Shown here one piece after another: positions 4,801 to 56,746 of a DNA stretch of 64,000 nucleotides. The position numbers and the translations under genes were made by a program. This DNA is from Pseudomonadota bacterium (lineage in GTDB: Bacteria > Pseudomonadota > Gammaproteobacteria > UBA9214): the NCBI GenBank assembly GCA_039714975.1, contig JBDLIH010000007.1, forward strand, positions 4,199 to 68,198, given 5' to 3'. The stretch's first letter is position 1, and each line of letters starts with the position of its first letter. Below the pieces are notes generated by a model that saw nothing but the letters and a program-made list of their open reading frames with translations, had not been told where the DNA came from and made no database searches.

Positions 4801-5738
4801 CCATAACGGGCAGTGAGCAGTTTGGGCGGCAGGGTGCCGTCAAATGTCCACAGTGATTTGTGGTCCTGCACCGGCATGTCCGGATGGAACTTGATGGCGA
4901 TGCCTTCTGTCGTTCCCTCAAACCCGGGAGCGCCTACCGTGTTGTGGTAGAGCCCACCTAGACCAAATTCACCGTCATTGTAGTCGTGACCCTGCAACTG
5001 ATCACGTAAACCGCCGTTCACACGGGCGCCTGCCATCGCGCTCTGGAAATATTCTGTGGGAGTGAAATCGTCCCAGCGCTGATGCGACCAGCCCAGACCC
5101 GGCGGCCGACCTTCGGCAGGCGGATCATCCAGAGGTCTGCCGAGATAGTTTTCGATTTCCGCTGCCCAGGGATTCGTATCCTGGTCGTTGGCAAACACGG
5201 TTGGGACAGGCCAGATACTCTTGTCGAGAAAATCTTCAAGGGCCGCGCCATCCGGAGCACTCTGGGCACTCGCGGGTGCCGGTAACGACGTCCAGCCGTT
5301 TGGCTTTTTCGCGTCCAAGTCAAGTGCTTTGGTCCCGAACTCCTCGAAGCGCAAAATCTGCTGGGTAAATGCCTCGGCGCCAAACAATGGGCTGGGTGGT
5401 CCATTGCTCGGGACATTAAATACGGCCTCTTCTTCAGGCCGCTGATCTGCCGGCTGCAGCGTGTTAGACGCTTCCGCGTCTTCGGTATGGCCGGTTTCAC
5501 CGCCCTCAAAAGTACCCAGGTTCGCGTCTGGCAGGCCTTCGAGCGCACTACCATCACCATCGATCACCAGAGGAGTTAACGCTGAAGGATCTTGATTGTT
5601 GTCACCTCCGCCTCCTGGACCACCTTTGGCCGCTGCGCTGCTCGTGACGCCAAGGCACATGCTCAATAAGGCTGTCCCCAGGATTCCAGGAATGTGTGTA
5701 GTGTTACCAAAATACGGGAAATTTCTTTTTCTAGACAT
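1881..5738 (-). CDS. Giant multicopper oxidase, probable lipoprotein (~1285 aa; alternative start at 5762). CotA/bilirubin-oxidase-like core with long N- and C-terminal extensions
   Basis: All four MCO copper motifs are present in order: HTISTHEHNGH, THWFHDHM, HPIHIHFEEG, HCHNTQHEDHAM. Signal peptide with a lipobox-like LSMCLG. No Met-rich segment. About 300-aa low-complexity N-terminus and about 480-aa C-terminal extension. Confidence 0.8.
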   Translation of the reverse strand: MSRKRNFPYFGNTTHIPGILGTALLSMCLGVTSSAAAKGGPGGGGDNNQDPSALTPLVIDGDGSALEGLPDANLGTFEGGETGHTEDAEASNTLQPADQRPEEEAVFNVPSNGPPSPLFGAEAFTQQILRFEEFGTKALDLDAKKPNGWTSLPAPASAQSAPDGAALEDFLDKSIWPVPTVFANDQDTNPWAAEIENYLGRPLDDPPAEGRPPGLGWSHQRWDDFTPTEYFQSAMAGARVNGGLRDQLQGHDYNDGEFGLGGLYHNTVGAPGFEGTTEGIAIKFHPDMPVQDHKSLWTFDGTLPPKLLTARYGETVLFRHYNALPIDVAANRGFGVHTISTHEHNGHNPAESDGYANSFFFPGQFYDYRWPMTLAGSDTINTDASDPRAGSPDGAGGINQVPGDWRETMSTHWFHDHMLDFTAQNVYKGNAAMMNYYSAIDRGNEAIDDGVNLRFPSGEQLDWGNRDYDVNLLVAEKAWDDEGQLWFNPFNLMGFAGDVMTVNWLYKPYMEVRARQYRFRILNGSVSRFFKLALVDETGTPVPFYMVANDGNIMEHSVYFENGELPTQGIAERYDIIVDFSQFNAGDRLYMVNLMQQKDGVTADAAIPLADVVSGVYAAEHGDCDEDGIVGDCWVNGDPVVGKFLEFRVAEYDGEDLSMDPSEYVAGGKKMIPLNRPTEAELANALHRSFEFERQPTDEKPWVIETDGGKGFGMDPRRISAAPSKNSGGLEVWRLINSGTWSHPIHIHFEEGIILRRNGVAPPDYEQWARKDVYRLGPQPDSGDLVEIALRFREFAGTYMEHCHNTQHEDHAMLLRWDIEHPGQVKLMPTPLPTWDGVGYVDSVALPTFREGDDVGQFGPELDPLSVWIKNGVTISHFDNIRDEPIGDALDPNDNNERGGITFELEKGTHVDANGNERDVYFIMHDVSDEELSEELGIAWGGGLTGVNPAATAEASVKRKGNKLEWTFYDDLPNPVWANPACRVGDPDVNGEPCLNDANIPDVSDTNTYSPLRRVNIDGKDVVFNIIFMKWGDEDWEQNRTDRTCNSFPDSPPNTTCAYNGTAWGRYNNSGHVVEMDTDANPPYVTLKLHKSWASEHGDYLPYYIVVDTFPFPPARAMGVPYVPKHEFLGTTAVPLVQWMPGKRHVDPTFPPMPQPATADGGEYNCGSEGCGINGGGGPFGSQVGLPSYFMPEDDYSPMWHIGFAHWLEPHDRVVKGLKELRQLRKDGRVEILEWPAPPRVAEGDNTGVRVDDYDFTSANAPHVVNCPTPVTLDAAIHRARNAGK

Positions 5739-5895: not shown

Positions 5896-6078
5896 CAAAT
5901 TTATCTCGAAAATATTTTTGTTTTTATGGAATAAACGAGTCTTCCCGGGCATCTATAAATATAAGTACGACTACCCGGGTGAATCACTTTCAGGACGGTT
6001 TATTGATGTAATTTTCACTTATATCGAAGCGGAGTTTATTTTTTGACGGTGAAAAATCAGGTTCCTGACCTACCAAAA

Positions 6079-6095
6079 ATAGGGATTTTCCCTAT
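6079..6095. promoter_or_regulatory. Palindrome ATAGGGATTTTCCCTAT (copy 1 of 3 of a recurring motif)
   Basis: 7-bp inverted arms. Near-identical copies at 17247-17263 and 19410-19426, all intergenic. Confidence 0.4.
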
Positions 6096-6308
6096 GCCCC
6101 CTTTCTTGATTCTTTCATTAAAATGGGGCGAGGCATTCCTCAGGGTTTACTACGTCAGAATTGGTCTTGCTTCACCAGTTTAAGACATGCTCCAGACTGG
6201 ACTGTTGTTCGCAACTGTAAAGAACACAAAATATAATGCCGGATGTAGCGGCCCAATAAACAACAAGTGATGTACTTGCGCATCTCCTGCAGACAGGACT
6301 GACAACCA

Positions 6309-6995
6309 GTGTTCAAAACCAGAACCATTGACTGGCGCCAACATTATCCACAGCTTGCGTCAATTGCAGATCCCGCCTGGATAGAGGCAATTAAGCATTT
6401 GGAGCCAATCACTGTGCCCGGCGGAACCCAGGCATATATAGCTGGTGATGAATGCCGAAACTTTCTGTTACTCCTAAAGGGCAATATTCGGGTTTATGCC
6501 TCCGGACGGGGTGGCCGTGAGATTGTCCTCTACCGTATACAGCCGGGCGAATTCTGTATTCTGTCACTCGTCTCATTCCTGCAGGGCAGCTCATTTCCTG
6601 CGAATGCGGTCACTGAAAACGAAGTGCAGGCCCTGGTCATGGACCGTAACGTCTTCATACGGGCCATGAAAAATTCACCGGCCTTGAATGACATCATGGT
6701 GATGGAACTGAGTAATCGATTTATTGAAGTCATTAACCGGGTTCAGGAGCTTGCGTTTGAACCGCTCGATATACGGATGGCCAATCTGTTATGCAGGCGG
6801 TTCCGTGAAGAACACGGGACAACGATTGAAATCACCCATAGCCAATTAGCCCAGGAACTGGGTACCACACGGGAAGTTGCAAGCCGAATGCTCAAGGACC
6901 TGGAACGCGGCAGTTACATCAGACTTTCGCGCGGTAAGGTCAGTTTGCACGACAATGAAGCAATCGGACGCATGTATCAGTTGGGAGAGCAGTAA
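6309..6995 (+). CDS. Crp/Fnr-family transcriptional regulator
   Basis: cNMP-binding-like N-terminal domain. C-terminal HTH ELAQELGTTREVASRMLKDLERGSYI. Confidence 0.8.
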   Translation: MFKTRTIDWRQHYPQLASIADPAWIEAIKHLEPITVPGGTQAYIAGDECRNFLLLLKGNIRVYASGRGGREIVLYRIQPGEFCILSLVSFLQGSSFPANAVTENEVQALVMDRNVFIRAMKNSPALNDIMVMELSNRFIEVINRVQELAFEPLDIRMANLLCRRFREEHGTTIEITHSQLAQELGTTREVASRMLKDLERGSYIRLSRGKVSLHDNEAIGRMYQLGEQ

Positions 6996-7035
6996 GCTGT
7001 AATTTACTGCTGTCAGTAACCGCAATACACTGTAC

Positions 7036-8355
7036 TCATTCCTCCGGTTTCCCCAGTACAACAATGTAACCCGCAACGGGCTGCCCCTTGTCCATTCGCA
7101 ACACGCTCTCCTCAAGGTACACTTCCTGCAAGCCAACGGCTTCTGCCAGTCTGATCAGATAGCCAATTGAGTGTGCATAGCGCCCGGTGGGCCTTAACAC
7201 AAAGTTGCCATCCCCCTCTTTCGCCTCGATGGAAAAGGCAAACAGCCCACCGGACCTCAACGCCGTGCCAATTGCCTCAAACACCTGATCCAGCCCGCCT
7301 ACATAAATAAAAACATCGGCAGCCAGGACAAGGTCATACGCATTGTCGTGTTTACGCAGTTCTTTTGTTATATCTGCCGTAACAAGCCTGTCATACAGCT
7401 TGCGTTGGCTTGCCCTGGCCAGCATTCCCGGCGAGAGATCCACACCCACCATGGTTCCGGCCATGCCACGAAACAGGGGGCCGCATAAACCGGTACCACA
7501 ACCGAGGTCCATCACATCCAGTTCCTGTTGTTCGGGACCGAGCAGCCGTGATACTGCCTTGTGGAGACTCCGGGGAACCTGATACCCGAGCTCCTCGACA
7601 AGGTGCTGGTTAAAATACGAAGCACACCCATCAAACAAACCGACTACATAGCCGGCCGGTGCGGATTTCGTAGTATGTCCTTCCAGTGCAGCCAGCATGT
7701 GTCGTGCACTGGTATTTTTGTTATCCAGTTGCAAGGTAAGTTCAAACAGGGCCCTGGCTTCATCCCTCCCTCCCTGCTCCATCAGCATGGTTGCCAGACT
7801 GTTACAGGCATCCGGAAAATTCGGCTCAAGGGTCAGCGCACGTTTCATTGCTGCAATGGCCTCATCCTGGCGCCCCTGCGTATGCAACAGGTCACCATAG
7901 TTGTAATGTGCCAGCGCGAAATCCGGGGCAATACTGATAGCCTGCCGGAATGCATCAAGCGCGGCATCCGGCTCCCCGGCAGCACGCAAGGCATTGCCCA
8001 GATTGTTATACGCCAGCGCGAAACCGGGGTTGATCCCGACAGCCTTCCGGAAGGCATTAATTGCCTCTTCGAAATTACCGCCAGCCTGCAGGGCGGAACC
8101 AATATTGGTGAACAGTTCAGCACTTGCCGGGCCCCGCTCGACAGCGACGGTTAAAAGCCTGATGGCTGTTTCACTATCCCCTGACTGGTGTTCAAGCAAA
8201 CCCAGCATATGGAGGGTGTCTGCATGCTGCGGTCTTGCCTTGAGAATCTTTTTGTATATCTGCCTTGCTTTCTGTAGTCTGCCGGCCCGGTGCTGTTGCA
8301 CCGCAAAGTCGAGTTTTTCCTGGATTGCGCTTCGTTTCATCCGGACTACGTTCAC
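7036..8355 (-). CDS. TPR-repeat protein fused to a class I SAM-dependent methyltransferase
   Basis: N-terminal TPR repeats (AxxYxxLGxxxxxxGxxxEA pattern, at least 5 copies). C-terminal VMDLGCGTGL SAM-binding motif. Confidence 0.7.
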   Translation of the reverse strand: MNVVRMKRSAIQEKLDFAVQQHRAGRLQKARQIYKKILKARPQHADTLHMLGLLEHQSGDSETAIRLLTVAVERGPASAELFTNIGSALQAGGNFEEAINAFRKAVGINPGFALAYNNLGNALRAAGEPDAALDAFRQAISIAPDFALAHYNYGDLLHTQGRQDEAIAAMKRALTLEPNFPDACNSLATMLMEQGGRDEARALFELTLQLDNKNTSARHMLAALEGHTTKSAPAGYVVGLFDGCASYFNQHLVEELGYQVPRSLHKAVSRLLGPEQQELDVMDLGCGTGLCGPLFRGMAGTMVGVDLSPGMLARASQRKLYDRLVTADITKELRKHDNAYDLVLAADVFIYVGGLDQVFEAIGTALRSGGLFAFSIEAKEGDGNFVLRPTGRYAHSIGYLIRLAEAVGLQEVYLEESVLRMDKGQPVAGYIVVLGKPEE

Positions 8356-10238
8356 TGGTCTCGCGCGGCACGCCGCACGCGCACCACGCCCAGGATTATA
8401 GCCAGCACAATCACCACCAGTGGCACCAGTGCGATGTTGATGATTTTCAGCCGGGTTCCCAGCAACTCGATATCCTTGCTGAGCGCATGCTGCACATTAC
8501 GCAGGTCTTTTCTTATTTGAATATGCTCAGCCCTGAATTTATTGATTTCATCCAGTTGAGCCTCGCTCATCACCGGCTCGCCCGTCTCGCTGGTCACTTC
8601 TTTCTGCAGTTCCCTGATCTTGTGCCCGGTCGCACTCAGCTTCTCCTGAAGCAGCAACTCCTTGATGCGGAATTCCTGGTCTGCAGCAGCCCTGAGATCC
8701 GCAACTCTTTCAAACGGCCTGACCGAGCGCCCGCGACTCCTGAGGTTGATGAGGTCATTACTGCCACTGAGGTTATCCAGCGCATTGATGACAAAGGTAT
8801 CGTTATCGGCACTTGGTACTGCGGCACGCCTGCCGTAAAAATCCTGAAAGCTCACCCAGAACATGTCCCGCAGCATGTCGGTATCGGCAACGATAATCAC
8901 ATTCGCCGGCTCACTTGATTCTGTCAGACGGCCTGACTCCCCGCCCCCATTGATACCCTCCGGGAAGGCGGATAGCACGTTCCCATTGACCCTGGCCGCC
9001 AGCACGAATGGTTCACCGCCAGACTGGTAGGCCTGCAGCAGTTCCTCGGGGCTGGTAAAAAACTGGATGCTGGCGGCATCGATCGGCATGGACTGGTCGC
9101 TGGTCATGACCATGGGTGTGAAACGTGTTTTCGCCCCGGCGCGCTGGCGCAGAATCCCGGCACTGCCCATCACCAGACTGTTCAGTCGGCCACTGACAAA
9201 GTCCTCGCGACTGAAATTATCCTCCCCCAGAGTCAACCAGGCGACATAGTCCACGACGCCCTTCTCCTGCCCGCCCACGGTAGACTTGATACGGGTTGCA
9301 GCCTGCCGGTCGGCGGCAACCAGGTAAGGCACCAGTTCAACCCCCCACGCCTCCATCAGCTTCCCGAGGTCCGATGCACGCGCCGAGGTGACGTACTCCT
9401 GTTCGCCCTCTGCCGGCTTCTCGATTTCCACATCGGCCTCGGCAAACGGGTCGAGGAAGGCGAGTACGCGGCCACCACCCAGCACGTACTGGTCAATGGC
9501 AAACAGTGTCTTCTCATCGGTTTGCTTCGGATGCACGATCATCAACACATCAACATTTTCAGGAATCGATTCGGGCGAATTCCCCAGGTCCTGTATATCA
9601 AACGAACGTTTTAACTGGGTCAGGATGAACCACTCCTGCGTCCTGTCGAGAAACACGTTGGCTGGACCACCATCCAGCGGCAGGGAGGAGATCAGTCCGA
9701 CCACCGGTCGTTGCGGATTCGCCAGGCCATAGACCAGCCCGGACAGTTCATACTCCAGTGACTCTTCCTGCTCCGGCTGAAAATAGGGTAGCGCGCGCCA
9801 TTTCCCGGCGGCATTGCCCCCAACCAACCCGAAATAGGCCAGACTGCCGGCCGTGTCCACAGGCGTCCCCTGCAGGCGGTAGTGCATTGCCTCGGCCTCT
9901 TCATCGGAGAATGGTTCCGGATTTTTGACCACCAGCTCGATCTGGCCGTCTGCCAGCGCGACGTATTGCTCAAGCAACTCCTTTACCTGCTGGCCATAGG
10001 TCGTGATCGCCGGCATACCACTGAACAGCTGTTCGGAGAAATAGAAACGCAGCGTGATTTTCTCATCAAGATTGCCAAGGATGTTCTGCGTACCCTCTGA
10101 CAGGGTGTACAGGCGGTTTGCGGTCATATCGAGATGCTGACCCTTGAGGAATACCCCGGCGGCCAGGTTGATAACAATCAGCAGCACCGCCACTGCGACC
10201 AGACCCGCCCCGGAAAATAATTTCTGCCCCTTCAGCAT
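8352..10238 (-). CDS. GldG-like ABC-transporter auxiliary component (large periplasmic protein with N- and C-terminal TM segments)
   Basis: Sits in an operon with an ABC-2 permease and ATPase and overlaps the preceding TPR-methyltransferase ORF by 4 bp. GldG-like size and topology, with an N-terminal TM segment (AGLVAVAVLLIVINLAAGVF) and a C-terminal one (IINIALVPLVVIVLAIILGVV). Confidence 0.6.
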   Translation of the reverse strand: MLKGQKLFSGAGLVAVAVLLIVINLAAGVFLKGQHLDMTANRLYTLSEGTQNILGNLDEKITLRFYFSEQLFSGMPAITTYGQQVKELLEQYVALADGQIELVVKNPEPFSDEEAEAMHYRLQGTPVDTAGSLAYFGLVGGNAAGKWRALPYFQPEQEESLEYELSGLVYGLANPQRPVVGLISSLPLDGGPANVFLDRTQEWFILTQLKRSFDIQDLGNSPESIPENVDVLMIVHPKQTDEKTLFAIDQYVLGGGRVLAFLDPFAEADVEIEKPAEGEQEYVTSARASDLGKLMEAWGVELVPYLVAADRQAATRIKSTVGGQEKGVVDYVAWLTLGEDNFSREDFVSGRLNSLVMGSAGILRQRAGAKTRFTPMVMTSDQSMPIDAASIQFFTSPEELLQAYQSGGEPFVLAARVNGNVLSAFPEGINGGGESGRLTESSEPANVIIVADTDMLRDMFWVSFQDFYGRRAAVPSADNDTFVINALDNLSGSNDLINLRSRGRSVRPFERVADLRAAADQEFRIKELLLQEKLSATGHKIRELQKEVTSETGEPVMSEAQLDEINKFRAEHIQIRKDLRNVQHALSKDIELLGTRLKIINIALVPLVVIVLAIILGVVRVRRAARDQ

Positions 10239-10265
10239 TACACTGCACCTGTTATCATTTTACTT

Positions 10266-11000
10266 TTAATCCGACTTCTTCATCTCGACGGCAATGATGT
10301 TTGCCAGCAGCCAGCAACCGATAAACGAAAAAAAGAACACCAGGTCACGCAGATCGATCACACCCTTTAGCATAGAATTGAAGTGGGTGGTAATACTCAT
10401 GCCACTGATAGTGTTGATCAACGGCTGCGGCAACCAGGCCTGGAACAGATCCAGTACCATCGGTGTGCCGGAAAGCATGAAGACAAAACAGATGACCACG
10501 GCAATCACAAAGGCAATCACCTGGTTGCGTGTGAAAGCCGAGACACAGGACCCGACAGCAAGATAGGCGCCCGCCATGAGATAACTGCCGATATAGCCGA
10601 CCAGGATCACAGGATTGTCCGGGTTGCCCAGGTAGTTCACCGTTAACCAGATCGGGAAAGTCAGCATCAGCGCAATACCGGTGAAGGTCCAGGCAGCGAG
10701 GAACTTGCCGGCAACCGCCTGCCAGGTGGAGATCGGCAAGGTCATTAGCAATTCGATGCTGCCTGACTTGCGCTCCTCGGCCCACAGCCGCATCGACAAG
10801 GCAGGGATAAGAAACAGGTACAGCAGTGGTTGATAGTCAAAGAAAGTCTGCAGATCGGCCTGCTCACGTTCGTACCAGCCACCCACGTAGAAGGTGAACA
10901 CGCCATTCAGTGCCAGGAAGATCACAATAAACACATAGGCTACCGGGGTGGTAAAATAGTTGCCCAGCTCACGCCGGAAGATGGCAGCCGTCGCACTCAT
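10266..11000 (-). CDS. ABC-2 family permease (GldF-like)
   Basis: Six predicted TM helices. Overlaps the ATPase gene by 4 bp. Confidence 0.7.
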   Translation of the reverse strand: MSATAAIFRRELGNYFTTPVAYVFIVIFLALNGVFTFYVGGWYEREQADLQTFFDYQPLLYLFLIPALSMRLWAEERKSGSIELLMTLPISTWQAVAGKFLAAWTFTGIALMLTFPIWLTVNYLGNPDNPVILVGYIGSYLMAGAYLAVGSCVSAFTRNQVIAFVIAVVICFVFMLSGTPMVLDLFQAWLPQPLINTISGMSITTHFNSMLKGVIDLRDLVFFFSFIGCWLLANIIAVEMKKSD

Positions 11001-11962
11001 GACAGATCACCCTCATCCACCGACCCGCCATGCGAGGTAATCCGCCGGAACACCTCGTCCAGCTGACCGGTGGCAACATAGACCTCTTCAATTTCCCAGC
11101 CCTCGTCTCGAACCAGACGGGTGACCTGCCCCACGATGGACACGCCGCCTCCGGGCATCACAATAAGGCGATTCAGTGCCTGCTCACGATTCACCCCGGC
11201 GACATTATCCAGTGCACTCAGACGTTGCTCGGCAATATCCGGAAGCCCGCCGGCGAAGGTGATAGTCACCGCATTGTGCTGTCGTGACATCGCCTCCAGT
11301 GCCTGTGGCGTGCCATTAAATACCAGCCGCCCCTGCGCAATAATCACGGCACGGTCGCAGATGGCATTCACCTCTTCCAGAATGTGCGTGGAAATGAGGA
11401 TGGCCTTGTCTCGCGCCATTTCACTGATCAACTCGCGCACTTCGTGCTTCTGGTTAGGATCCAGCCCGTCTGTGGGTTCATCCATGATTAAAATGGGAGG
11501 GTCGTGCAGAATTGCCTGCGCCAGACCCACGCGACGCTTGAAGCCCTTGGACAGGGTATCGATGGGTTTGTGGATCACACTACCCAGGTTTGCCTTCCGG
11601 ATAGATGAATGAATACGGTCCTGCTTTTCCGTTCCCCGGAAACCACGGATATCTGCAATAAAACCCAGAAACCCGGTGACGGTCATTTCACCGTAAGCCG
11701 GAGCACCTTCCGGCAGGTAACCGATACGCTGCTTGACTTGTGTTGGATACTTGCCGACATCGAGGCCATCCACCCGGATCTGCCCGCCACTTGATGCCAG
11801 GAAACCGGTGATCATTTTCATGGTGGTGGACTTGCCCGCGCCATTCGGGCCAAGAAACCCCAGCACCTCGCCCCGGTTCACATCAAAACTGACGCCATCC
11901 ACTGCAGTGAAGGCACCGAACTCCTTGCGCAGAGACTCAACTACAATTGCGGACTCCATCAT
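10997..11962 (-). CDS. ABC transporter ATP-binding protein (GldA-like)
   Basis: Walker A GPNGAGKST, signature LSKGFKRR, Walker B ILIMDEPT. Confidence 0.85.
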   Translation of the reverse strand: MMESAIVVESLRKEFGAFTAVDGVSFDVNRGEVLGFLGPNGAGKSTTMKMITGFLASSGGQIRVDGLDVGKYPTQVKQRIGYLPEGAPAYGEMTVTGFLGFIADIRGFRGTEKQDRIHSSIRKANLGSVIHKPIDTLSKGFKRRVGLAQAILHDPPILIMDEPTDGLDPNQKHEVRELISEMARDKAILISTHILEEVNAICDRAVIIAQGRLVFNGTPQALEAMSRQHNAVTITFAGGLPDIAEQRLSALDNVAGVNREQALNRLIVMPGGGVSIVGQVTRLVRDEGWEIEEVYVATGQLDEVFRRITSHGGSVDEGDLS

Positions 11963-12594
11963 TTAGTGCTATTAGCAGGCTCGGCTGGTTCCGGTACAGC
12001 GCCCTCTTCTTCCCCAGGCCAGTAGGTGGTAAACGTCTGTTCGACCAGCAGGTGGTCCTGATACCAGATCTGGAAAGTCCACTCGCCCTCCACCAGCTCA
12101 TAGTCCTCGTTGAAGGCATAGCCGTCAAAGCCAATCACCTGTCCAACGCTCAGGCGACCCTTGAAGGTACGCTCGGATCCCATGGTTGTGGACTCGTCGG
12201 GTAAGCTCATCTCGGGATGAATCAGGACCTTCCTCAATTCAACGGCCGGTTTTTTTGCCACTTCCGTTGGTAAATCCATGATGCGGTAGCGATAGGCAAA
12301 ATAGGTATCCTTTACCAGGGGAATGCGGTCGGTCTGTTCAGCCAGTTCAAGAACCGGCTTGTTGATCACCTTCCCGGTGTTTGCGGTTATTTCATCCCGT
12401 ACCCGGCCCTTTCTCTGTGCGTTATATATTCCGTGTTCGAAAACCCTGCCGTTCGGATCCTTGACGTCTGCGGGCTGCGCCCGGGCTTGTGTGTCCGCAG
12501 TGTCGGAATCCGTATTCGTTTTGCTGTCATTGTCAGTAGCCTTATCGCAGCCGGCCAGTACGGCCAAGACCAAACACGCTATCAGGTATTTCAT
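11959..12594 (-). CDS. Lipoprotein of unknown function, first gene of the ABC operon
   Basis: Start refined to MKYLIACLVLAVLAGC (lipobox LAGC). 4-bp overlap with the ATPase start. Confidence 0.55.
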   Translation of the reverse strand: MKYLIACLVLAVLAGCDKATDNDSKTNTDSDTADTQARAQPADVKDPNGRVFEHGIYNAQRKGRVRDEITANTGKVINKPVLELAEQTDRIPLVKDTYFAYRYRIMDLPTEVAKKPAVELRKVLIHPEMSLPDESTTMGSERTFKGRLSVGQVIGFDGYAFNEDYELVEGEWTFQIWYQDHLLVEQTFTTYWPGEEEGAVPEPAEPANSTK

Positions 12595-12744
12595 GGAATC
12601 CCCCTTTGTACAGAAAAACATTTTTAATGTTATACCTTAAAACAAGACAAATCAGAACAGGGAAAGTTTCCGCTTTAACCAGCAGGCCATGTACAACAAA
12701 GAAGGGGCTTGCGCCCCCTCTCCGGTATGCAGTATTACCTGCCC

Positions 12745-14139
12745 TTAGTCATCCAGTGGCAGTCCGCTCGGCACGCCGTTGACAACATCCTGGTCACTGC
12801 GAAGGTCAAGACTGGCCGGGTCCGTCAGCGCATTCAGGAAGTCGATAATGCGATCGACGTCCTCATCACTGTAGGCAAACGGGTCCAGCTCGTTGTGAGC
12901 CGCGATAAAATCAACACGATCCGGATCATCCATGGCGATATAGTTCTCCGCATCCAGGGTCGGATGGGTCGGAAGGACTGCCTGCCGGTTGCTGTTGTAG
13001 GTATAGAGTGCGTTGACCGCATCCACGTGGTGTTCGACAACTGCGCGCAGTGTATCGTAGGCACCGCCATGACCATAAGGTGCAGTCAAAGCCACATTAC
13101 GTAATGTTGGAGTGCGGAACTTGAGCGTATCTGCCGGATCTCCGGTTACCTGCTCACGACCAAAGTCTTCATGGCCACCGGTCTTGCCAGGGCTGTTACT
13201 GCCGCGGCCTGAGCCAATCTGCGGCATTGCAATAGCATGGAAAGAATTGTCGGTCTGGTACAGGCCACTGTGGCAGCTTGCACAGGCATTGCCATTACCA
13301 TCACCCTCGTAGAACAGTTCCATGCCGGCCAGGGCATTTTCACTCATGGCGCCTTCGTCGCCACGGAGCAACTGGTCGAAAGGGCTGTTATCCGCACGCC
13401 AGGTTTCACCCTCAAAAGCCGAAATGGCATTGGCGGCATGGGCATAGGTGATATCACCGGCGCTGAGTACGTCGCCGGGGAAAGCGGCTTTAAACATATC
13501 AACGTATACAGGAATGGCCTGCAGGCGTTGCGCCAGCTGCTCCCAGACACCGCCAGGATCGGCCAGGTTACCGGCACCTGCTGCATCGGCAATGGAGTTC
13601 TCACCCGGCTGACCCGCCATTTCTGTACCAGATGTCACAGGAAACATGGCCTGACATGCCAGCACGTTTTCCAGGTTGCCTGGCAGATTGTGACCAGCCG
13701 GTGTCTTGCAGCCGCTTGGGAAGCCTTCCCCACCGACGGTTGTCACACGGCCATCGTGGAACATGGTGTGGAATGAGTTGTCACCCAGATTCCATACATG
13801 CGGCGCATTGCGTGGCACACGTTCGACGACCAGATCTGCACCTGAACCCACATTACGGGTTACACCCAGACCTTTACCACCTTCACCAACGGGTAATGAA
13901 AGACCGTCACCGGTACCTGTCAAAGAGTGGTGGCAAGTACCGCAGGAAATGTTCTGATTACCACTCAGGATCTTATCGAACATCAAAACCCGACCCAATT
14001 CTACCTTTTCTGCACTCGGTGTGCGGAAGTCATAATTGGGTTCCGGCAGATCGAGACCGTTGCCCTTGGCGTTTACCGTGCCACTGATTCCCAGCATCGC
14101 GACAGCGACAGCGGCAGCAATACAGCTATTTGTTTTCAT
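12745..14139 (-). CDS. Di-heme cytochrome c peroxidase / MauG-family enzyme
   Basis: Signal peptide. Two heme c motifs, CGTCHH and CASCHSG, spaced as in the CCP/MauG family. Confidence 0.8.
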   Translation of the reverse strand: MKTNSCIAAAVAVAMLGISGTVNAKGNGLDLPEPNYDFRTPSAEKVELGRVLMFDKILSGNQNISCGTCHHSLTGTGDGLSLPVGEGGKGLGVTRNVGSGADLVVERVPRNAPHVWNLGDNSFHTMFHDGRVTTVGGEGFPSGCKTPAGHNLPGNLENVLACQAMFPVTSGTEMAGQPGENSIADAAGAGNLADPGGVWEQLAQRLQAIPVYVDMFKAAFPGDVLSAGDITYAHAANAISAFEGETWRADNSPFDQLLRGDEGAMSENALAGMELFYEGDGNGNACASCHSGLYQTDNSFHAIAMPQIGSGRGSNSPGKTGGHEDFGREQVTGDPADTLKFRTPTLRNVALTAPYGHGGAYDTLRAVVEHHVDAVNALYTYNSNRQAVLPTHPTLDAENYIAMDDPDRVDFIAAHNELDPFAYSDEDVDRIIDFLNALTDPASLDLRSDQDVVNGVPSGLPLDD

Positions 14140-14396
14140 CGTATAGTCTCCCCATTATGTTTAAGTGCACTTTGGCTTGTGTAGATATCCAGACAACAGG
14201 CAGTGCTCGTTCCCGAAACCCTGCACTGAAAAACAATACAAACGACTGACGTTTTCCAGACACCCGCCCCCTTGTCATACCTGTCGTGACAGGCTGATCT
14301 AGAATCAGTCTTTGTATTGATGAAATTCAGACCGAATTTATTCCCTGATTTTTACCCGTTGTAAAAATGGCAGGGAAGTATTTTGCAGGCGAGCAT

Positions 14397-14429
14397 AAAA
14401 AACCGGCGGGCAGTTGCCTGCCACGCCGG
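14397..14429 (-). terminator. Rho-independent terminator downstream of the 239-aa secreted protein gene
   Basis: On the minus strand: CCGGCGTGGCAGG-caa-CTGCCCGCCGG followed by TTTTTT. Confidence 0.6.
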
Positions 14430-14541
14430 TAGAAGCTAGTCTTGCACGTACGGGGAAGCGCGCAAGACCGAAAGCTTTTCTTCAACGGGCTATCAAATAA
14501 ATCAGGCCTGTCGAGTTAAAGCTTTTTTAGACGACCTGGTA

Positions 14542-15246
14542 TCAGGGATACTGGAACCAGGCTTCACGCTTGCTCGGAGACAGGCCATGACCGAGACCAT
14601 CCTGGCAGTGTGACACGATGCGCAGCATGAACGGACCGCCAATTCCTGCATCAGTTGGATTCACAATTGTTGTCGGAATCGGCTGAGCATTGGGGTTTTT
14701 TGTCTGCGCAAGCAAATGGTCGGCATGATCCATTCTGTTGAATGGATAGGAACCACCCAGTACCGGGAAATCCAGGCTGAGGTTTAACACACCTTCACCA
14801 TCGGAGTTGGTTGTGAAACCGTTTGGCTGTGTAGAGCTACCGGCTCCAACCCAGTCAGCGACCAACTGAGCCAGGCCACTACTGGGTGCCAGAGGTGTTG
14901 CACCACCACCGGTGATCGGGCTGCCACCGAAACTTGCGCCATGGGCAGCGCCTTTCATCCGCACCCACACGGTATACAGTGTGTTGGGCGCAGCGCCTCC
15001 CACTTCGATCTCTACCGTACTGTTTCCATTGGTCTGGCTGATCACAAGCGAAGCGGTTGCATCCTGCCAGCTGTTACCGCTCGGGTCTACCGGGCATTCT
15101 GCTTCCACAGTGTCACCACTGCCACTGGCGCTGCCTGCAGGCCGACGGCTGAAGTCATCCTTCAGGGTCGCGGCCTGGGCGATACCAGAAAGGGTAAGCC
15201 CGCTAACTAAAGCGGCGATTGCTGTTGTTAAAATGGAACGTTTCAT
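14542..15246 (-). CDS. Secreted protein of unknown function
   Basis: Signal peptide MKRSILTTAIAALVSGLTLSGIAQA. Gly/Thr/Ser-rich. No recognisable motif. Confidence 0.5.
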   Translation of the reverse strand: MKRSILTTAIAALVSGLTLSGIAQAATLKDDFSRRPAGSASGSGDTVEAECPVDPSGNSWQDATASLVISQTNGNSTVEIEVGGAAPNTLYTVWVRMKGAAHGASFGGSPITGGGATPLAPSSGLAQLVADWVGAGSSTQPNGFTTNSDGEGVLNLSLDFPVLGGSYPFNRMDHADHLLAQTKNPNAQPIPTTIVNPTDAGIGGPFMLRIVSHCQDGLGHGLSPSKREAWFQYP

Positions 15247-15404
15247 TAGAACTCCTCCCAATTATTGCTATTTAAAAGTAAGTATTACTACTTCTTGATA
15301 AAAAGACCTGTTATCGCCCTAAGGCTCCCCCCGGCCTTTAAACGTGGCCTCCGGCAGGCGATACGCCGCCCGCCGGAAGACAAGTGCTTGCTATTGCTAA
15401 CTGC

Positions 15405-17009
15405 TTACTGAATGAACGCCTCGTGAATGACCATCAGCATGCGCGGGTCGACGAAGTCATCGACGAGCACATTATTGCCATTGGCCCGGCCCAGGTAGGT
15501 CGCGATTGGCTGGGCACAACCACTGTTGTCAGCACCCGGGGCTTGGCTACCATCACATGGGGTCGTTTTGTCCCAGCTTTCGGCGAGATCGTTAAACTCA
15601 GGATTGCCATCAGCATCTTCCGGCAGGATCGAGTACTCGCCAACACCACCACCCGGAACGAAGCACGGAGCCGGCGGAACCCCACCCGTTACCGTGCAAC
15701 CCGGATTGAAGGCAGACGCTGCAATTAACAGGGTTTCCACATCACAGGCCGTGCCATCAACACCAGGACCACCGATGTTGTCACAGGCCACGGCGGACAT
15801 GCGGTTGGGACGGATACCGGCAATGACGTTCACACCCGGGTCCAGACCAATGGTGCGATCCGGTGAGTCACTGCCCAGATCGACAACCTGGACCTTCTGA
15901 CGGAACACGCCCGGGTTACAACCACCCGGTGTGCCGGGAATTTCTCCCTCGAGGCAGTCCCTGGAACGTTCCCGGTCGGTCACGTAGATGGTACCGTCTT
16001 CGTCATAGCCCCAGGCACGCAGCGAGTCGCGACGTGACGGATCATCGGCCGGTGTACCTGGACGCATGTCGATCCAGCGAGTAATGACAGCATTATTTTC
16101 AGGTTCGTCAAGCTCGAATGAATCGTCATCCTTATTGGAACCTACGCCAGCGACTTCATCAGAAAGACCGGCTTTCCAGTCAACCATGGCGATAGCTGCA
16201 CCGTGGAACATACTGACGCCCATGCCTTCCTCAGAGAATGCAAGGCCAGCCATACAGGTCCAGCGAGCATCTGCATCAGCAGGCTGGTTGTATTCGTCGA
16301 TTACATTCAGAGATTCCTGATCCAGCACCAGCACACGGCTGTTGGCAGAGCGAGCAGCTGTCTGGTACACCGGAGGGAAGAACAGGTTGGAGGCATTCGC
16401 TTGCGAGTCGTCACCGCTTGGGCTGACTGAATCCGAGTTCTGCGCATTGAAGAAGTTGGCATCGCAGATGGCCTGTACGATATTTCCGTTCGGCATCATC
16501 TGGGTACCCAGTGGACGCGGCAAGGAACCACGACCAGCAGGACCTGTGGGGTTACCCAGCAGTGGTCGGAAAGACACTGTGCGGATCGGGGTGCCATCAC
16601 GATGGAACTCGGTCAATGACTGCTGCGCCGCACTGGTGATGAAGGCGTGGCCGTTCAGACCACCGGACAGTACACCGGTGGGCTTGAAGGGACCGGGGCA
16701 TTCCTGTGAATCTGGACAAATCGGGCCACCAGCATTACCGGGATTGAACGGGTTGTTTACCGTGATACCGCGAGCACCGGTGACAATGTTAACTTCCAGC
16801 ACGTTACCTGGACCATTAGCGGCCGCCCATCTCGTTGCATCAGGGTTTGCAGGTGAAGGGCCGTTCATCGCATTAGCCATCATAAAGTTGGCCTCGAGAC
16901 AGGCCGGTGTACCGACGTCATCAAGACCATGTGCTGCTGCCGTGCCCACGGCTCCTGCAAGCAGGGCACCGCTCATTGCAGCAACGGTTTTTTTAAGTGA
17001 CATATTCAT
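15405..17009 (-). CDS. Secreted protein of unknown function (534 aa, Gly/Pro/Asn-rich, many Cys pairs)
   Basis: Signal peptide MNMSLKKTVAAMSGALLAGAVGTAAA. No recognisable catalytic motif. Confidence 0.5.
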   Translation of the reverse strand: MNMSLKKTVAAMSGALLAGAVGTAAAHGLDDVGTPACLEANFMMANAMNGPSPANPDATRWAAANGPGNVLEVNIVTGARGITVNNPFNPGNAGGPICPDSQECPGPFKPTGVLSGGLNGHAFITSAAQQSLTEFHRDGTPIRTVSFRPLLGNPTGPAGRGSLPRPLGTQMMPNGNIVQAICDANFFNAQNSDSVSPSGDDSQANASNLFFPPVYQTAARSANSRVLVLDQESLNVIDEYNQPADADARWTCMAGLAFSEEGMGVSMFHGAAIAMVDWKAGLSDEVAGVGSNKDDDSFELDEPENNAVITRWIDMRPGTPADDPSRRDSLRAWGYDEDGTIYVTDRERSRDCLEGEIPGTPGGCNPGVFRQKVQVVDLGSDSPDRTIGLDPGVNVIAGIRPNRMSAVACDNIGGPGVDGTACDVETLLIAASAFNPGCTVTGGVPPAPCFVPGGGVGEYSILPEDADGNPEFNDLAESWDKTTPCDGSQAPGADNSGCAQPIATYLGRANGNNVLVDDFVDPRMLMVIHEAFIQ

Positions 17010-17246
17010 ATGGTTCCTCTCCTTTTCTTATATATAAACAACGATCGTTGTGAAGAAGACACGCCTGATCAAGCACAAGACGCCCCTCTCACTAGTAGAC
17101 GCACCCGGGGATGAATTTATTCCAGTGTTTTTAATTGCGGGTTACAGCTTATTTGATGATTATCCAAATATTCAGCTGCTTACACTGTGAATTGTTTCAG
17201 GTGATATCAGGACAGGAAGATCGTGCAGGGAATCCGGTCGGTCACA

Positions 17247-17263
17247 ATGAGGATTTTCCCTAT
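17247..17263. promoter_or_regulatory. Recurring palindrome, copy 2 (ATGAGGATTTTCCCTAT) upstream of csrA
   Basis: Right half-site is identical to the copy at 6079. The left arm is degenerate. Confidence 0.35.
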
Positions 17264-17387
17264 AGGTGCACCCCCCGGACCGGAGTAGTATCAAGCACGT
17301 TTCTTTAGTAACAGTGGTCCCGGAACAACATTCCAGCCTGGAGCCTGTCACGGAGAGAGCACAGACCTGACAAGGAGATAACATATC

Positions 17388-17576
17388 ATGTTAGTACTTA
17401 CGAGGAGAGTCAATGAGACACTGATGATCGGTAATGAAGTAACGGTGACCGTGCTTGGTGTTAATGGGAACCAGGTAAGGATCGGCATTAATGCACCAAA
17501 AGAGGTGGCCGTGCATCGAGAAGAGGTTTATGAACGCATTAAGGCCCAGGTGGACCTGAAGATGGTAACGAATTAA
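17388..17576 (+). CDS. csrA: Carbon storage regulator CsrA/RsmA
   Basis: [53 protein letters not shown] is canonical CsrA. Confidence 0.9.
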
Positions 17577-17648
17577 TCCCTGGTAACCTTAACAACTCCA
17601 GTAAACACAATAAAAATAAATTTACAAAAACGAGAATAAAGTGGTTTT

Positions 17649-18227
17649 GTGAATCATCTATTATGTGGGGGCGCAGTAATGATAAAAAACATGATTTGTG
17701 CAAGCCCGGCACTGAAAAGACGGATTGCCGATTCAAGAGACCGTCTTTACCGTGTCGCATTTTCCTGGTGTGGCGATGAAATGCTTGCAGATGACCTGGT
17801 TCAGGAGGCCATTGAAACAGGCATTCGTAAAAGACGACAGCTAAGGGATGAAAGCAAACTGTTTCCATGGCTGTATCGTATTCTGAACAATGCATGGTAT
17901 GCGCATCTAAGGAAGGACAGGACACATGAAATGCTGGATGACGACATGCCCACTGAGGATATCGGGCCATGCAACATTTGTCAGGAACTTGAATTAGTCA
18001 CACGGGTGCGTGCAGCAGTTGCATCACTGCCACGAGACCAGCGACAGGTAGTCTCTCTGGTCGACCTGGGCGGGTTACCATACTGTGAAGTTGCCGAGAC
18101 ACTTGAAATACCCATTGGTACGGTTATGAGCCGGTTACACCGGGCAAGAAAGGGGTTGCTGGCCAGTATGGATGGTGCTCCTGCTGAATTAATGACAACC
18201 CGGGGAAACATACGTCTAGTGGAGTAG
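17649..18227 (+). CDS. ECF (sigma-70 family) RNA polymerase sigma factor
   Basis: Region 2 (YRVAFSWCGDEMLADDLVQEA) and region 4 (LEIPIGTVMSRLHRARKGL). Start may be the internal MIKNM. Confidence 0.8.
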   Translation: MNHLLCGGAVMIKNMICASPALKRRIADSRDRLYRVAFSWCGDEMLADDLVQEAIETGIRKRRQLRDESKLFPWLYRILNNAWYAHLRKDRTHEMLDDDMPTEDIGPCNICQELELVTRVRAAVASLPRDQRQVVSLVDLGGLPYCEVAETLEIPIGTVMSRLHRARKGLLASMDGAPAELMTTRGNIRLVE

Positions 18228-18233
18228 TGTTGT

Positions 18234-18977
18234 ATGACAAAGTCTGACGATATTCTTGATGATCAGGCGCTGGGGAGTTTCACAGACGGCCTGCTCGATG
18301 CTGCCCACAGCGAAAAGATCATCAAGGCTATGGAAGACGACCCTGAGGTACGGGAGCGTGTATATCAGCTTCGCCGTGCAAAAGACCTGATGAGACTGGG
18401 ATTTGGTGACACCAGCACACCATCAGGCAACACAGCAAAAGAAAAATTCCGGAACTGGAAAATCTTTTCACCGGAAATTGCTGCATCCATTGCAGCCCTG
18501 GCGGTCGCCTTTGGCGCCGGCATGCTTGGCCATGGGTACCATGAGGGGCCAGTGAACGCTGTTGCCGGCCAGGCTGTCGCATCAAGCCGTCAGCATCAAC
18601 CGGAAAAAGTGATTCTGCACATTTCCGAGTCAGACCCTGCAAGGTTTTCCACCATACTCGAGTACACAGAAAAGTTTCTGCAGGAACATCAGGGAGAGGG
18701 AGATCAGATTGAGGTCGTCGCACACGCAGGAGGCCTTGATCTGATGCGGTCTGATGTTTCCCCGTTCAAGGAACAGATACTCGAGATGATTTCCAAATAC
18801 AAGAACGTGCATTTCTTTGGCTGCGCCAATGCCATCCGTATGTTACAAAACAATGGCATTAACCCTGCCATAATCAGTGGCATCAACACGCACGTGACCA
18901 CATTCGAGCACATCGTCAGTCGACTGCAAACAGGCGGCTGGAAGTATATAAAGGTTGATTCGATTAAGAGTATCTAA
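18234..18977 (+). CDS. Membrane anti-sigma factor with a periplasmic DsrE/DsrF-like (COG1416, sulfur-relay fold) domain
   Basis: Begins 7 bp after the sigma factor gene. N-terminal anti-sigma-like helix region. One TM segment (IAASIAALAVAFGAGMLG). C-terminal domain KVILHISESDP...IEVVAHAGGLDLM...VHFFGCANAIRML matches the DsrE-like pattern, including the conserved Cys. Confidence 0.6.
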   Translation: MTKSDDILDDQALGSFTDGLLDAAHSEKIIKAMEDDPEVRERVYQLRRAKDLMRLGFGDTSTPSGNTAKEKFRNWKIFSPEIAASIAALAVAFGAGMLGHGYHEGPVNAVAGQAVASSRQHQPEKVILHISESDPARFSTILEYTEKFLQEHQGEGDQIEVVAHAGGLDLMRSDVSPFKEQILEMISKYKNVHFFGCANAIRMLQNNGINPAIISGINTHVTTFEHIVSRLQTGGWKYIKVDSIKSI

Positions 18978-19159
18978 CCCCCCTCGGGATTGTCTGATTG
19001 TTCAGGCATCTCCAGCCACTCCGCCTCTTCGATACCGTTCATGCGCCGGTCGGGCTGCTTTCGACGTTCTTCAAGTACCCTCTCCCCATTGCTATCCCTG
19101 AGCAGAAATGACCGTTTCCCTGCCAACTGTCGTCGATCTTCCGGTTTGCGCTGACTCAT
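18974..19159 (-). CDS. Possible small charged protein (61 aa), function unknown
   Basis: Protein-like composition. An RBS-like AGAAGGG lies upstream. Palindrome copy 3 lies about 250 bp upstream. Confidence 0.25.
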   Translation of the reverse strand: MSQRKPEDRRQLAGKRSFLLRDSNGERVLEERRKQPDRRMNGIEEAEWLEMPEQSDNPEGG

Positions 19160-19409
19160 GATCCGCCCTTCTACCTCTGGAAGTTACCCGGGCAAATAAA
19201 AAAGACCCTGCGACAGGTACCGGAGGTTACGCTGTCACAGGGCTGCTGAAATTGTATGTAATATTCAGTTACCGTGCTTACTCATGAACAGCATGCCCGG
19301 AGAAAACAATGGGCATGCTGGCAGGACCCGGATACCCGTCACCACGCAACATGTCTCATCACTGCCCCGGAGTGAAGCCAAAGAATAATTGCCTCTGATG
19401 ACGGTGGAT

Positions 19410-19426
19410 ATAGGGAATTTCCCTAT
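19410..19426. promoter_or_regulatory. Recurring palindrome, copy 3 (ATAGGGAATTTCCCTAT)
   Basis: Near-perfect 8-bp arms. Intergenic. Confidence 0.4.
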
Positions 19427-19585: not shown

Positions 19586-20233
19586 TCAGGGCGTGATGAC
19601 CCCCATCCGGACGGCAAGACGGGTCAGTGCCGCAATATCGGAAACGCCGAGTTTCTTCTTCACGTTGGTGCAGTGGTGACCGACTGTTTTGGGACTCAGA
19701 TTCAGGATTCCGGCAATATCATTCACGGACTTGCTGTCTGCCAGCAAGTGAAAGACCTCAAACTCCCTGGGTGTCAAACCGGCAACCGCGTCCGACTCCG
19801 GCGTGGTTTTACGTTTAACAAGATATGACATCATTTCCTGTCCGACGTAGACCGAACCTGATGCGACTTGCCGGACGGCCTCTATCATGACCCGTGATGC
19901 GCTGCGCTTGGAAATGTAGCCCAATATTCCTGAATCGAGTGCACGCGCAAGGAAGACTTCGTTTTCATGCACGCTGAAGACGAGTATTTTCGCGGTGCTG
20001 TCCTTTGCCAGTATCCTCATACTGGCTTCCAGTCCGCCCATACCCGGCATTGACAGGTCCATCACCAGCACATCGGGCTGGTATTGGAAAAAGTCTGTAT
20101 AGGCAGATTCGCCATCTGCCGCCTCTGCAATCACCACAATATCCTCGGTGCCCTCAAGCAGCCTGCGGTAACCGGCGCGCACCACCTCGTGATCATCCAC
20201 CAGCAATACTTTTATCTTTCTGTCAGCGTTCAA
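19586..20233 (-). CDS. NarL/FixJ-family response regulator (REC + LuxR HTH)
   Basis: KVLLVDDHEVVR receiver. LuxR HTH LTPREFEVFHLLADSKSVNDIAGILNLSPKTV. Confidence 0.85.
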   Translation of the reverse strand: MNADRKIKVLLVDDHEVVRAGYRRLLEGTEDIVVIAEAADGESAYTDFFQYQPDVLVMDLSMPGMGGLEASMRILAKDSTAKILVFSVHENEVFLARALDSGILGYISKRSASRVMIEAVRQVASGSVYVGQEMMSYLVKRKTTPESDAVAGLTPREFEVFHLLADSKSVNDIAGILNLSPKTVGHHCTNVKKKLGVSDIAALTRLAVRMGVITP

Positions 20234-22496: not shown

Positions 22497-22500
22497 CAAT

Positions 22501-24184
<1,684 letters not shown>

Positions 24185-56549: not shown

Positions 56550-56626
<77 letters not shown>

Positions 56627-56670
56627 TAGAAACATAAAACAAGGGCTGAACGGGTCAGCCCTTGTTCGTT

Positions 56671-56746
56671 TGGTGGAGCCAGGCGGGATCGAACCGCCGA
56701 CCCCTTGCATGCCATGCAAGTGCTCTCCCAGCTGAGCTATGGCCCC
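56671..56746 (-). tRNA. tRNA-Ala (UGC)
   Basis: Reverse complement GGGGCCATAGCTCAGCTGGGAGAGCACTTGCATGGCATGCAAGGGGTCGGCGGTTCGATCCCGCCTGGCTCCACCA. Confidence 0.9.

Follow-up and report, generated by a model that had tools for sequence, protein, structure and literature searches.

Within the 64-kb stretch of contig JBDLIH010000007.1 that was analysed as a whole (the window), a 17-bp palindrome with an ATAGGG-N5-CCCTAT core occurs at three places (6079, 17247 and 19410), among genes for a multicopper-oxidase-like protein, a Crp/Fnr-family regulator, CsrA with an extracytoplasmic function (ECF) sigma factor, and a two-component module of periplasmic binding protein, histidine kinase and NarL/FixJ-type response regulator (Table 1). 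All three copies are intergenic on the gene map of the window. Copy 1 falls in the divergent gap between the multicopper-oxidase-like and Crp-like genes, copy 2 in that between u534, which encodes a protein without assigned function, and csrA, 124 nt before the csrA ATG, and copy 3 between the stop codon of the response regulator and a small open reading frame (ORF), s61. A preceding interpretation of the letters alone (the sequence-only reading) had reported three near-identical palindromes, none inside coding sequence and the second about 125 bp upstream of csrA, and its coordinates prove to be exact. A pattern search of the window with up to three mismatches gave five strand-matches, which are these three sites only; the mean in dinucleotide shuffles was 0.22 and none of 100 shuffles reached five. 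From 16 sites a position weight matrix was derived; its consensus is ATAGGGAATTTCCCTAT, with 8-1-8 symmetry, and at a threshold of at least 12 bits it finds only copies 1–3 in the 64 kb, with scores of 25–29 bits. The flanks of the three copies have no common sequence past ~18 bp, and the copies are therefore not pieces of a longer repeat. They are real, conserved sites that are predicted to bind one transcription activator.

The comparison covered the window and pieces of at most 20 kb from relatives (numbered with L), 1.1 Mb of related loci in total. A search of genome and metagenome collections with u534 gave metagenome-assembled genomes labelled Thiohalobacter, Thiogranum, Thiotrichaceae and unclassified Gammaproteobacteria, with 49–80% identity; these relatives are uncultured sulfur-oxidiser-like Gammaproteobacteria. 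In them the ECF gene and its partner are divergent from the u534 operon, and the region between u534 and the ECF gene contains neither csrA nor the palindrome. Those from the genome collection, with 50–75% protein identity and no csrA, were too diverged for footprinting and yielded one site only (L020), and closer relatives were reached through protein look-ups. Every match of at least 20 bits in the 1.1 Mb, checked on gene tables, is intergenic, and a scattering through genes, as of repetitive extragenic palindromes or miniature inverted-repeat transposable elements (REP/MITE-like repeats), was not seen.

Orthologs of the response regulator (73–100% identity) stand in a conserved string, pabC, yceG, tmk, binding protein, kinase and regulator, downstream of which the relatives have genes for SoxB-like metallophosphoesterases. 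The latter, in three paralog families (A, B, C), reach 88–156 bits with the SoxB model, whose cutoff is 550; they are thus SoxB-related and not SoxB. The palindrome recurs at these genes (Table 1), and in seven of eight lineages (the window, L093, L095, L096, L098, L102 and L104) the promoters that bear it lie within a few kb downstream of the two-component module or directly upstream of it. The recognition helix of the regulator, SPKTVGHHCTxVKxKL, is nearly invariant over these orthologs, as is the motif.

The sites also hold a fixed position with respect to a −10-like element. Each was oriented with its better-conserved half downstream, and gaps of 8–44 nt were scanned for TAnnnT. The hexamer is found at exactly 22 nt in 12 of the 17 oriented sites (TATATT three times, TAGTAT, TAGGAT and TAGTCT twice each, TATTCT, TAGCCT and TAGCAT once each) and almost never at other gaps, the background being 0.0078 per position. 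With the hexamer set at −12 to −7 the site spans from about −51 to −35 and is centred near −43, and −35 hexamers are poor; a site lying over the −35 region suggests a class-II-type activator arrangement. Two sites are found in each of the SoxB-like A promoters of L093 and L020, a perfect palindrome and, 22 bp downstream of it, a degenerate one, the latter with a −10 hexamer at 22 nt; the centres of the tandem sites are near −65 and −43. Several SoxB-like B promoters have, 22 bp upstream, half-sites that begin with ATMRG, and weak secondary half-sites lie 21–25 bp upstream elsewhere. The palindrome is thus over-represented, recurs only in non-coding DNA upstream of genes, is conserved at orthologous promoters against diverged flanks and, except in the Crp-like class, keeps one position in the core promoter, all of which bears out the earlier proposal that the copies are a shared operator or regulon signature.

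Table 1 Features of the window and positions of the palindrome in related loci
DNA	Feature	Position	Strand	Remarks
Window	SCO1/PCuAC-cytochrome c fusion	383-1732	-	
Window	Multicopper-oxidase-like protein, 1293 aa	1881-5762	-	Cu-oxidase_2 + DUF7482
Window	Possible weak secondary half-site ATCAGG...	6056..6072	.	~23 bp upstream of copy 1; very weak in the window, tentative
Window	Copy 1 of predicted operator, ATAGGGATTTTCCCTAT	6079..6095	.	28.7 bits; 213 nt upstream of Crp-like gene
Window	-10-like hexamer TAAAAT	6119..6124	+	23 nt after copy 1, not 22
Window	Crp/Fnr-family regulator	6309-6995	+	cNMP-binding domain + HTH_Crp_2; predicted regulon member, rival candidate as binder
Window	Long cluster between Crp-like gene and copy 2		-	TPR-methyltransferase, ABC transporter parts, DUF3859, cytochrome c peroxidase, 239-aa and 534-aa unknowns
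Window	u534, 534-aa protein	15405-17009	-	
Window	GGAAT-N17-CGTC block	17123 to 17098	-	Predicted ECF-type promoter; kept in L040, L047, L071
Window	Copy 2 of predicted operator, ATGAGGATTTTCCCTAT	17247..17263	.	25.5 bits; distal half degenerate, proximal half intact
Window	-10 hexamer TAGTAT	17286..17291	+	Exactly 22 nt after copy 2; predicted start near 17298, toward csrA
Window	csrA	17388-17576	+	Pfam CsrA
Window	ECF sigma factor	17649-18227	+	Pfam Sigma70_r2/r4
Window	247-aa partner, may be an anti-sigma factor	18234-18977	+	Synteny with ECF gene
Window	Predicted target operon, csrA + ECF + 247-aa partner	17388-18977	+	Pfam, synteny
Window	s61, conserved 61-aa ORF	18974-19159	-	tblastn homologs
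Window	Predicted remnant transcription unit	19195..19375	-	5' untranslated region (UTR), ~45 nt junction, last six or so codons (...FSGHAVHE*, ~19298-19278), terminator hairpin (19206-19242), U6 tract (19198-19203)
Window	-10 hexamer TATTCT	19382..19387	-	Exactly 22 nt after copy 3; predicted start near 19375; aligns with TAGTCT in L098, L095
Window	Copy 3 of predicted operator, ATAGGGAATTTCCCTAT	19410..19426	.	26.5-29.1 bits; minus strand reads ATAGGGAAATTCCCTAT; perfect 8-1-8 palindrome; 159 nt beyond response-regulator stop
Window	Response regulator, NarL/FixJ family	19586-20233	-	Receiver domain + GerE helix-turn-helix (HTH); best candidate as binder
Window	Histidine kinase	20230-21633	-	HAMP-HisKA_3-HATPase
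Window	Periplasmic PhnD-type binding protein	21630-22568	-	Weak match to periplasmic part of TtrS model, E 4.5e-6
Window	Two-component module (binding protein, kinase, regulator)	19586-22568	-	
L093 (CP070821.1)	Site CTAGGGAAATTCCCTAT	15298		Between SoxB-like A and DsrE-like
L093 (CP070821.1)	Site ATAGGGATTTTCCCTAT	16401		Upstream of SoxB-like C
L095	Site ATAGGGAGATTCCCTAT	12246		Upstream of SoxB-like B
L096	Sites ATAGGGAAAATCCTGAT; ATAGGAAATTTCCCTAT	15255 and 15524		SoxB-like A and C
L098	Site ATAGGGAGTTTCCCTAT	2783		Between regulator gene and SoxB-like B
L102	Site ATAAGGAATTTCCCTAT	5167		Upstream of string of SoxB-like B, binding protein, kinase, regulator
L104-L107	Site CTCAGGAGTTTCCCTAT	4164		Upstream of SoxB-like B
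L020	Site ATAGGGGAATTCCCTAT	3376		Between SoxB-like A and DsrE-like

Copy 2 can be aligned with its orthologs on two short metagenome contigs from closer relatives, one of which (L047) has u534, csrA (88% identity), the ECF gene (73%) and s61, and the other (L040) the same u534/csrA intergenic region. Both have TTCAGGAWTTTCCCTAT, then 22 nt, then TAGGAT, in line with copy 2, 22 nt and TAGTAT in the window. The promoter-proximal half, TTTCCCTAT, is invariant in this alignment and the distal half varies without a compensating change in the other arm. For no change of the distal arm (such as ATGAGGA, TTCAGGA, TTAAGGA or TTATGGA) is there a compensating one in the opposite arm, which argues for a protein site and not a hairpin. 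The second conserved block of this region, GGAAT-N17-CGTC, lies nearer to u534 and is a predicted ECF-type promoter of the u534 operon; since that operon would thus have a promoter of its own, copy 2 would serve the csrA-ECF operon and not u534. The promoter of copy 2 and those of the SoxB-like A genes have no alignable sequence outside the site. The palindrome itself was also considered as a sigma-54 or ECF promoter and rejected by eye, since neither the spacing nor the GC element agrees with one. The cluster of u534, u239 (the 239-aa unknown), DUF3859 and ABC transporter is probably transcribed with the divergent ECF sigma factor. A csrA gene between the ECF gene and u534 is peculiar to the source organism, L047 and L001, the other relatives having none there. 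Its predicted leader (17298–17387) has GGA at four places, the Shine-Dalgarno sequence being one of them, so that CsrA might regulate its own synthesis.

Copy 3 leads to a different kind of target. From this copy onwards the minus strand aligns with the promoter and 5'UTR of the SoxB-like B gene in L098 and L095. BLASTN of 19440–19150 (minus strand) against L098 gives two blocks, the first covering promoter and 5'UTR (2783–2859, 78% identity, E = 4e-13) and the second the last codons and terminator (5135–5240, 78.5%, E = 4e-20). The C-terminus encoded is ...FSGHAVHE* in the window and ...FSGHVGH* in L098. In L098 2.3 kb lie between the two blocks, against 45 bp in the window, from which we conclude that the SoxB-like B coding region has been lost in the source organism. 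The alignment is that of a clean deletion of ~2.2 kb of coding region, leaving the promoter, the leader, the tail and a conserved terminator hairpin. Copy 3 is accordingly read as the ortholog of the SoxB-like B promoter operator, an ancestral site adjoining its two-component module. From its predicted start it may now drive an RNA remnant of ~180 nt and perhaps, by read-through, s61.

The small gene that had been suspected at s61 is real. Its tblastn homologs in relatives (66% identity in L047, 67% in L095 and 79% in L098) are conserved at the codon level and there lie downstream of the SoxB-like B gene. The product is highly charged (MSQRKPEDRRQ...ERRKQPDRRMNGIEEAEW...) and has no Pfam or NCBIfam match. 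Copy 3 does lie upstream of s61, as first described, and can now be seen more exactly as a promoter left over from a SoxB-like gene, since deleted, that preceded the small ORF. The strands of 19195–19376 are asymmetric, with five GGA motifs on the plus strand, mostly as CCGGAG or CCCGGA, and none on the minus strand, which reads four UCCGG-type repeats. The possibility that copy 3 is followed by a Csr/Rsm sponge RNA was considered and rejected, as there is no Rfam match and no GGA on the strand that runs from promoter to terminator, and the unit is a deletion remnant. Pairing of the remnant RNA with the csrA leader was rejected as well, the duplex energy being no better than that of shuffles, of which 23 of 300 were equally good.

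Copy 1 belongs to the third class of sites. The Crp-like protein has many close homologs, and the palindrome lies upstream of the gene in all nine loci fetched (93, 82 and 73% identity), in the versions TTAAGGATTTTCCCTAT, TTATGGAATTTCCCCAT and ATAAGGAATTTCCCTAT. In the alignment of these upstream regions it is the sole strongly conserved block, at 103–230 nt from the start codon. A second, weaker copy lies 21–25 bp upstream of the main site in the orthologs (17.1, 12.4 and 7.0 bits); such secondary copies, of 7–17 bits, are at L084:9783-9799, L088:489-505 and L082:977-993. The TAAAAT hexamer that follows copy 1 is not kept in the orthologs, and the promoter assignment for this copy is therefore uncertain. 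Its better-conserved half, TTTCCCTAT, is oriented to the Crp-like gene, which copy 1 would control. The sequence-only reading had linked the csrA/ECF locus, the oxidase locus and the signalling module by the motif. The first of these links is upheld by the alignments, and the second is refined, in that copy 1 faces the Crp-like gene and not clearly the oxidase. The giant gene for the multicopper-oxidase-like protein is followed by that for the SCO1-cytochrome c-PCuAC fusion, and the pair is kept together with the Crp-like gene in L084–L089, L011 and L065.

As to the protein that binds, we favour, with a probability of about 0.55, the reading in which a dimeric transcription activator, the NarL/FixJ-type regulator of the window, binds the palindrome as the operator that defines a small regulon. 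Taken by itself, the choice of this adjacent response regulator as the candidate binder stands at about even odds. It is suggested by the position of the sites next to the module in seven of the eight lineages, including the string with the module itself in L102, by the orthology of copy 3 with a promoter at the side of the module, and by a recognition helix as invariant as the motif. The positions of the sites and the 22-bp tandem spacing moreover resemble those of NarL, and the module resembles ThsSR and TtrSR.

Under this reading the binding protein, which is PhnD/TtrS-like and periplasmic, would act together with the HAMP-HisKA_3 kinase to activate the response regulator, the module presumably sensing a sulfur oxyanion. 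A dimer of the regulator at the palindrome, 22 nt upstream of the −10 element, would then replace the missing −35 element, some promoters having another, weaker site two helical turns (22 bp) upstream of the first. The predicted targets in the window would be the csrA-ECF-partner operon for copy 2, the SoxB-like relic and possibly s61 for copy 3, and the Crp-like gene for copy 1. The signalling module is tied to the regulon, as had been suggested, but probably as the source of the regulator rather than as a target. A more far-reaching version is distinctly unlikely in our estimation: a sulfur-oxyanion two-component system with ancestral SoxB- and DsrE-like targets would have been rewired by spread of its operator to Crp-like, ECF and CsrA layers, the orphaned promoter would yield a new regulated RNA of ~180 nt, and the 8-1-8 geometry would be a new recognition mode for a subfamily of regulators.

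Several points weigh against the response regulator as the binder. The transcription starts are predicted ones, and adjacency amounts to guilt by association. The lineage of L099–L101, whose regulator ortholog has 76% identity, has no site within 10 kb. None of the sites of the Crp-like class (four lineages) has TAnnnT at 22 nt, and the Crp-like gene also always carries a site upstream, as the gene of an autoregulated binder would. An odd symmetry of 8-1-8 does not agree with the 7-2-7 arrangement of NarL, from whose heptamer consensus the order and spacing of the half-sites differ, and is not known from other sites of this family.

It is rather unlikely, in our view, that the palindrome is instead the operator of the Crp/Fnr-family regulator, with autoregulation through copy 1 and class-II activation elsewhere. 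Such a protein would explain why the palindrome is the only conserved intergenic block upstream of its own gene in nine of nine loci, and the centre of the sites, near −43, differs by no more than 1.5 bp from the −41.5 that is classical for class-II sites of CRP and FNR; the atypical geometry at the Crp-like gene would itself fit autorepression. The promoters with the motif in L093, L095, L096, L098, L102 and L104, however, have no Crp-like gene nearby and do have the two-component module. CP070821.1, a 2.6-Mb chromosome with two sites, has no Crp-like homolog among the 75 matches listed, a weak point in that the window's own protein is absent from them too. Sites of odd length are not known in the CRP/FNR family. 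The recognition helix of the Crp-like protein, TREVASR, retains the Arg, Glu and Arg that we take to correspond to the base-contacting R180, E181 and R185 of CRP, and so predicts an even-spaced TGTGA-type site and not AGGGA-N3-TCCCT; neither a TGTGA-N6-TCACA nor a TTGAT-N4-ATCAA core is present in the odd 17-mer with its AGGGA/TCCCT core. Neither the NarL/FixJ nor the CRP family is known to have classical sites of odd length, and geometry therefore does not decide between the two proteins.

Quite improbable is a third possibility, that the sites are bound by another regulator, encoded beyond the regions sampled, for which the Crp-like gene and the neighbours of the module are mere targets. The sample of 64 kb from the source genome and short pieces from its relatives leaves room for such a gene and the odd geometry fits neither candidate family, but adjacency to the module in seven lineages and the string in L102 would then be coincidence. 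That the palindromes are hairpin terminators or REP/MITE-like repeats is very improbable: copies 1 and 3 can fold into a hairpin of 7 bp with a 3-nt loop (~−8 kcal/mol) and copy 1 on the minus strand fits a simple terminator pattern of a 7-bp stem followed by TTTTGG, but no hairpin is stronger than −8 kcal/mol, copy 2 forms none, copies 2 and 3 have no T-run, arm changes go uncompensated, the sites precede genes and keep a fixed gap to −10 hexamers, and a repeat is contradicted by only three copies in 64 kb with no flank similarity, terminal repeat or target duplication. We have accordingly rejected both an intrinsic terminator, for which the loose pattern is found in copy 1 only, and a REP/MITE-like repeat. 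No Rfam family matches the palindrome regions; two adjacent tRNA genes (56553–56746, minus strand) are the sole Rfam matches in the window at the gathering score.

Literature searches with the motif string returned nothing relevant, only noise, and did not yield a LetA box sequence either, a resemblance to which is given no weight here. The operator is previously undescribed but of a known kind, an instance of ordinary operator-based regulation that overturns no concept. As predicted from its sequence and position, it is like a class-II site of the NarL/FixJ family, or less likely of the CRP family, yet stands outside the NarL 7-2-7, CRP, FNR and GacA consensus sequences. NarL recognises heptamers with the consensus TACYYMT-N2-AKRRGTA, and the GacA box is TGTAAG-N6-CTTACA. 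The site described here shares with those of NarL and NarP the form of a short inverted repeat for a dimer of GerE/LuxR-type HTH proteins, binding being in this case a prediction, and the regulator is likewise of the NarL family and paired with a HisKA_3 kinase. It differs in sequence (ATAGGGA-N3-TCCCTAT) and in having an odd 17 bp (8-1-8) where the NarL site has an even 16 bp, and the recognition-helix residues of the two regulators differ. For activation by NarL one site is enough, centred just upstream of or over the −35 region, at −44.5, or two helical turns further, at −66.5, a difference of 22 bp (PMC9314961). The centres here are near −43 and −65.

The class-II promoters of CRP and FNR are similar in having a dyad over a poor −35 element, and a Crp/Fnr-family gene here has a site upstream of itself; the centre at −43 in place of −41.5, the odd symmetry, the absence of a TGTGA or TTGAT core and the distance of most sites from the Crp-like gene are unlike them. 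In the CC(−41.5) promoter 29 bp separate the centre of the site from the −10 element (PMC9314961). With the GacA/UvrY system the regulon has in common the presence of csrA, a site before a short non-coding unit, and a regulator whose best NCBIfam match is the UvrY/SirA/GacA model, at 163 bits, far under the cutoff of 280. It differs in its kinase, which is not BarA/GacS-like, in the sequence of the box, in having no Csr/Rsm RNA in Rfam and in the lack of any GGA on the transcribed strand. Membership in a GacA/UvrY-Csr small RNA system was rejected, as the short unit is the remnant of a gene deletion. Orthologs of the response regulator are annotated as UvrY by JGI, probably a best-hit mis-annotation, the kinase being HAMP-HisKA_3 with a separate PhnD-like protein.

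Parallels in architecture are also found in ThsS/ThsR and TtrS/TtrR, which likewise combine a PhnD-type periplasmic fold, a NarL/FixJ-type regulator and a short inverted repeat. ThsR, the regulator of a thiosulfate sensor with a PhnD domain, has the short inverted repeat TATGTGGTTTACCACAAT upstream of a sulfur-metabolism gene (PMC5408782). The present system is unlike them in having a binding protein made as a polypeptide of its own, a kinase with a HAMP domain and another operator sequence, and its targets are SoxB-like, DsrE-like, csrA/ECF and Crp-like genes rather than the phs or ttr reductase genes. The locus illustrates how a regulon may gain regulators (csrA, ECF and Crp-like) and lose a structural target while the promoter of the latter is retained. 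The two-component system, so far uncharacterised, is widespread among uncultured Gammaproteobacteria of the marine sulfur cycle; the analysis provides for it a testable 17-bp cis-element with a defined promoter geometry and a first predicted regulon, made up of three SoxB-like paralog families, DsrE-like genes, the Crp-like regulator and the csrA-ECF operon. If the response regulator is indeed the binder, the system would offer a candidate new sensor/promoter pair comparable to ThsSR and TtrSR.

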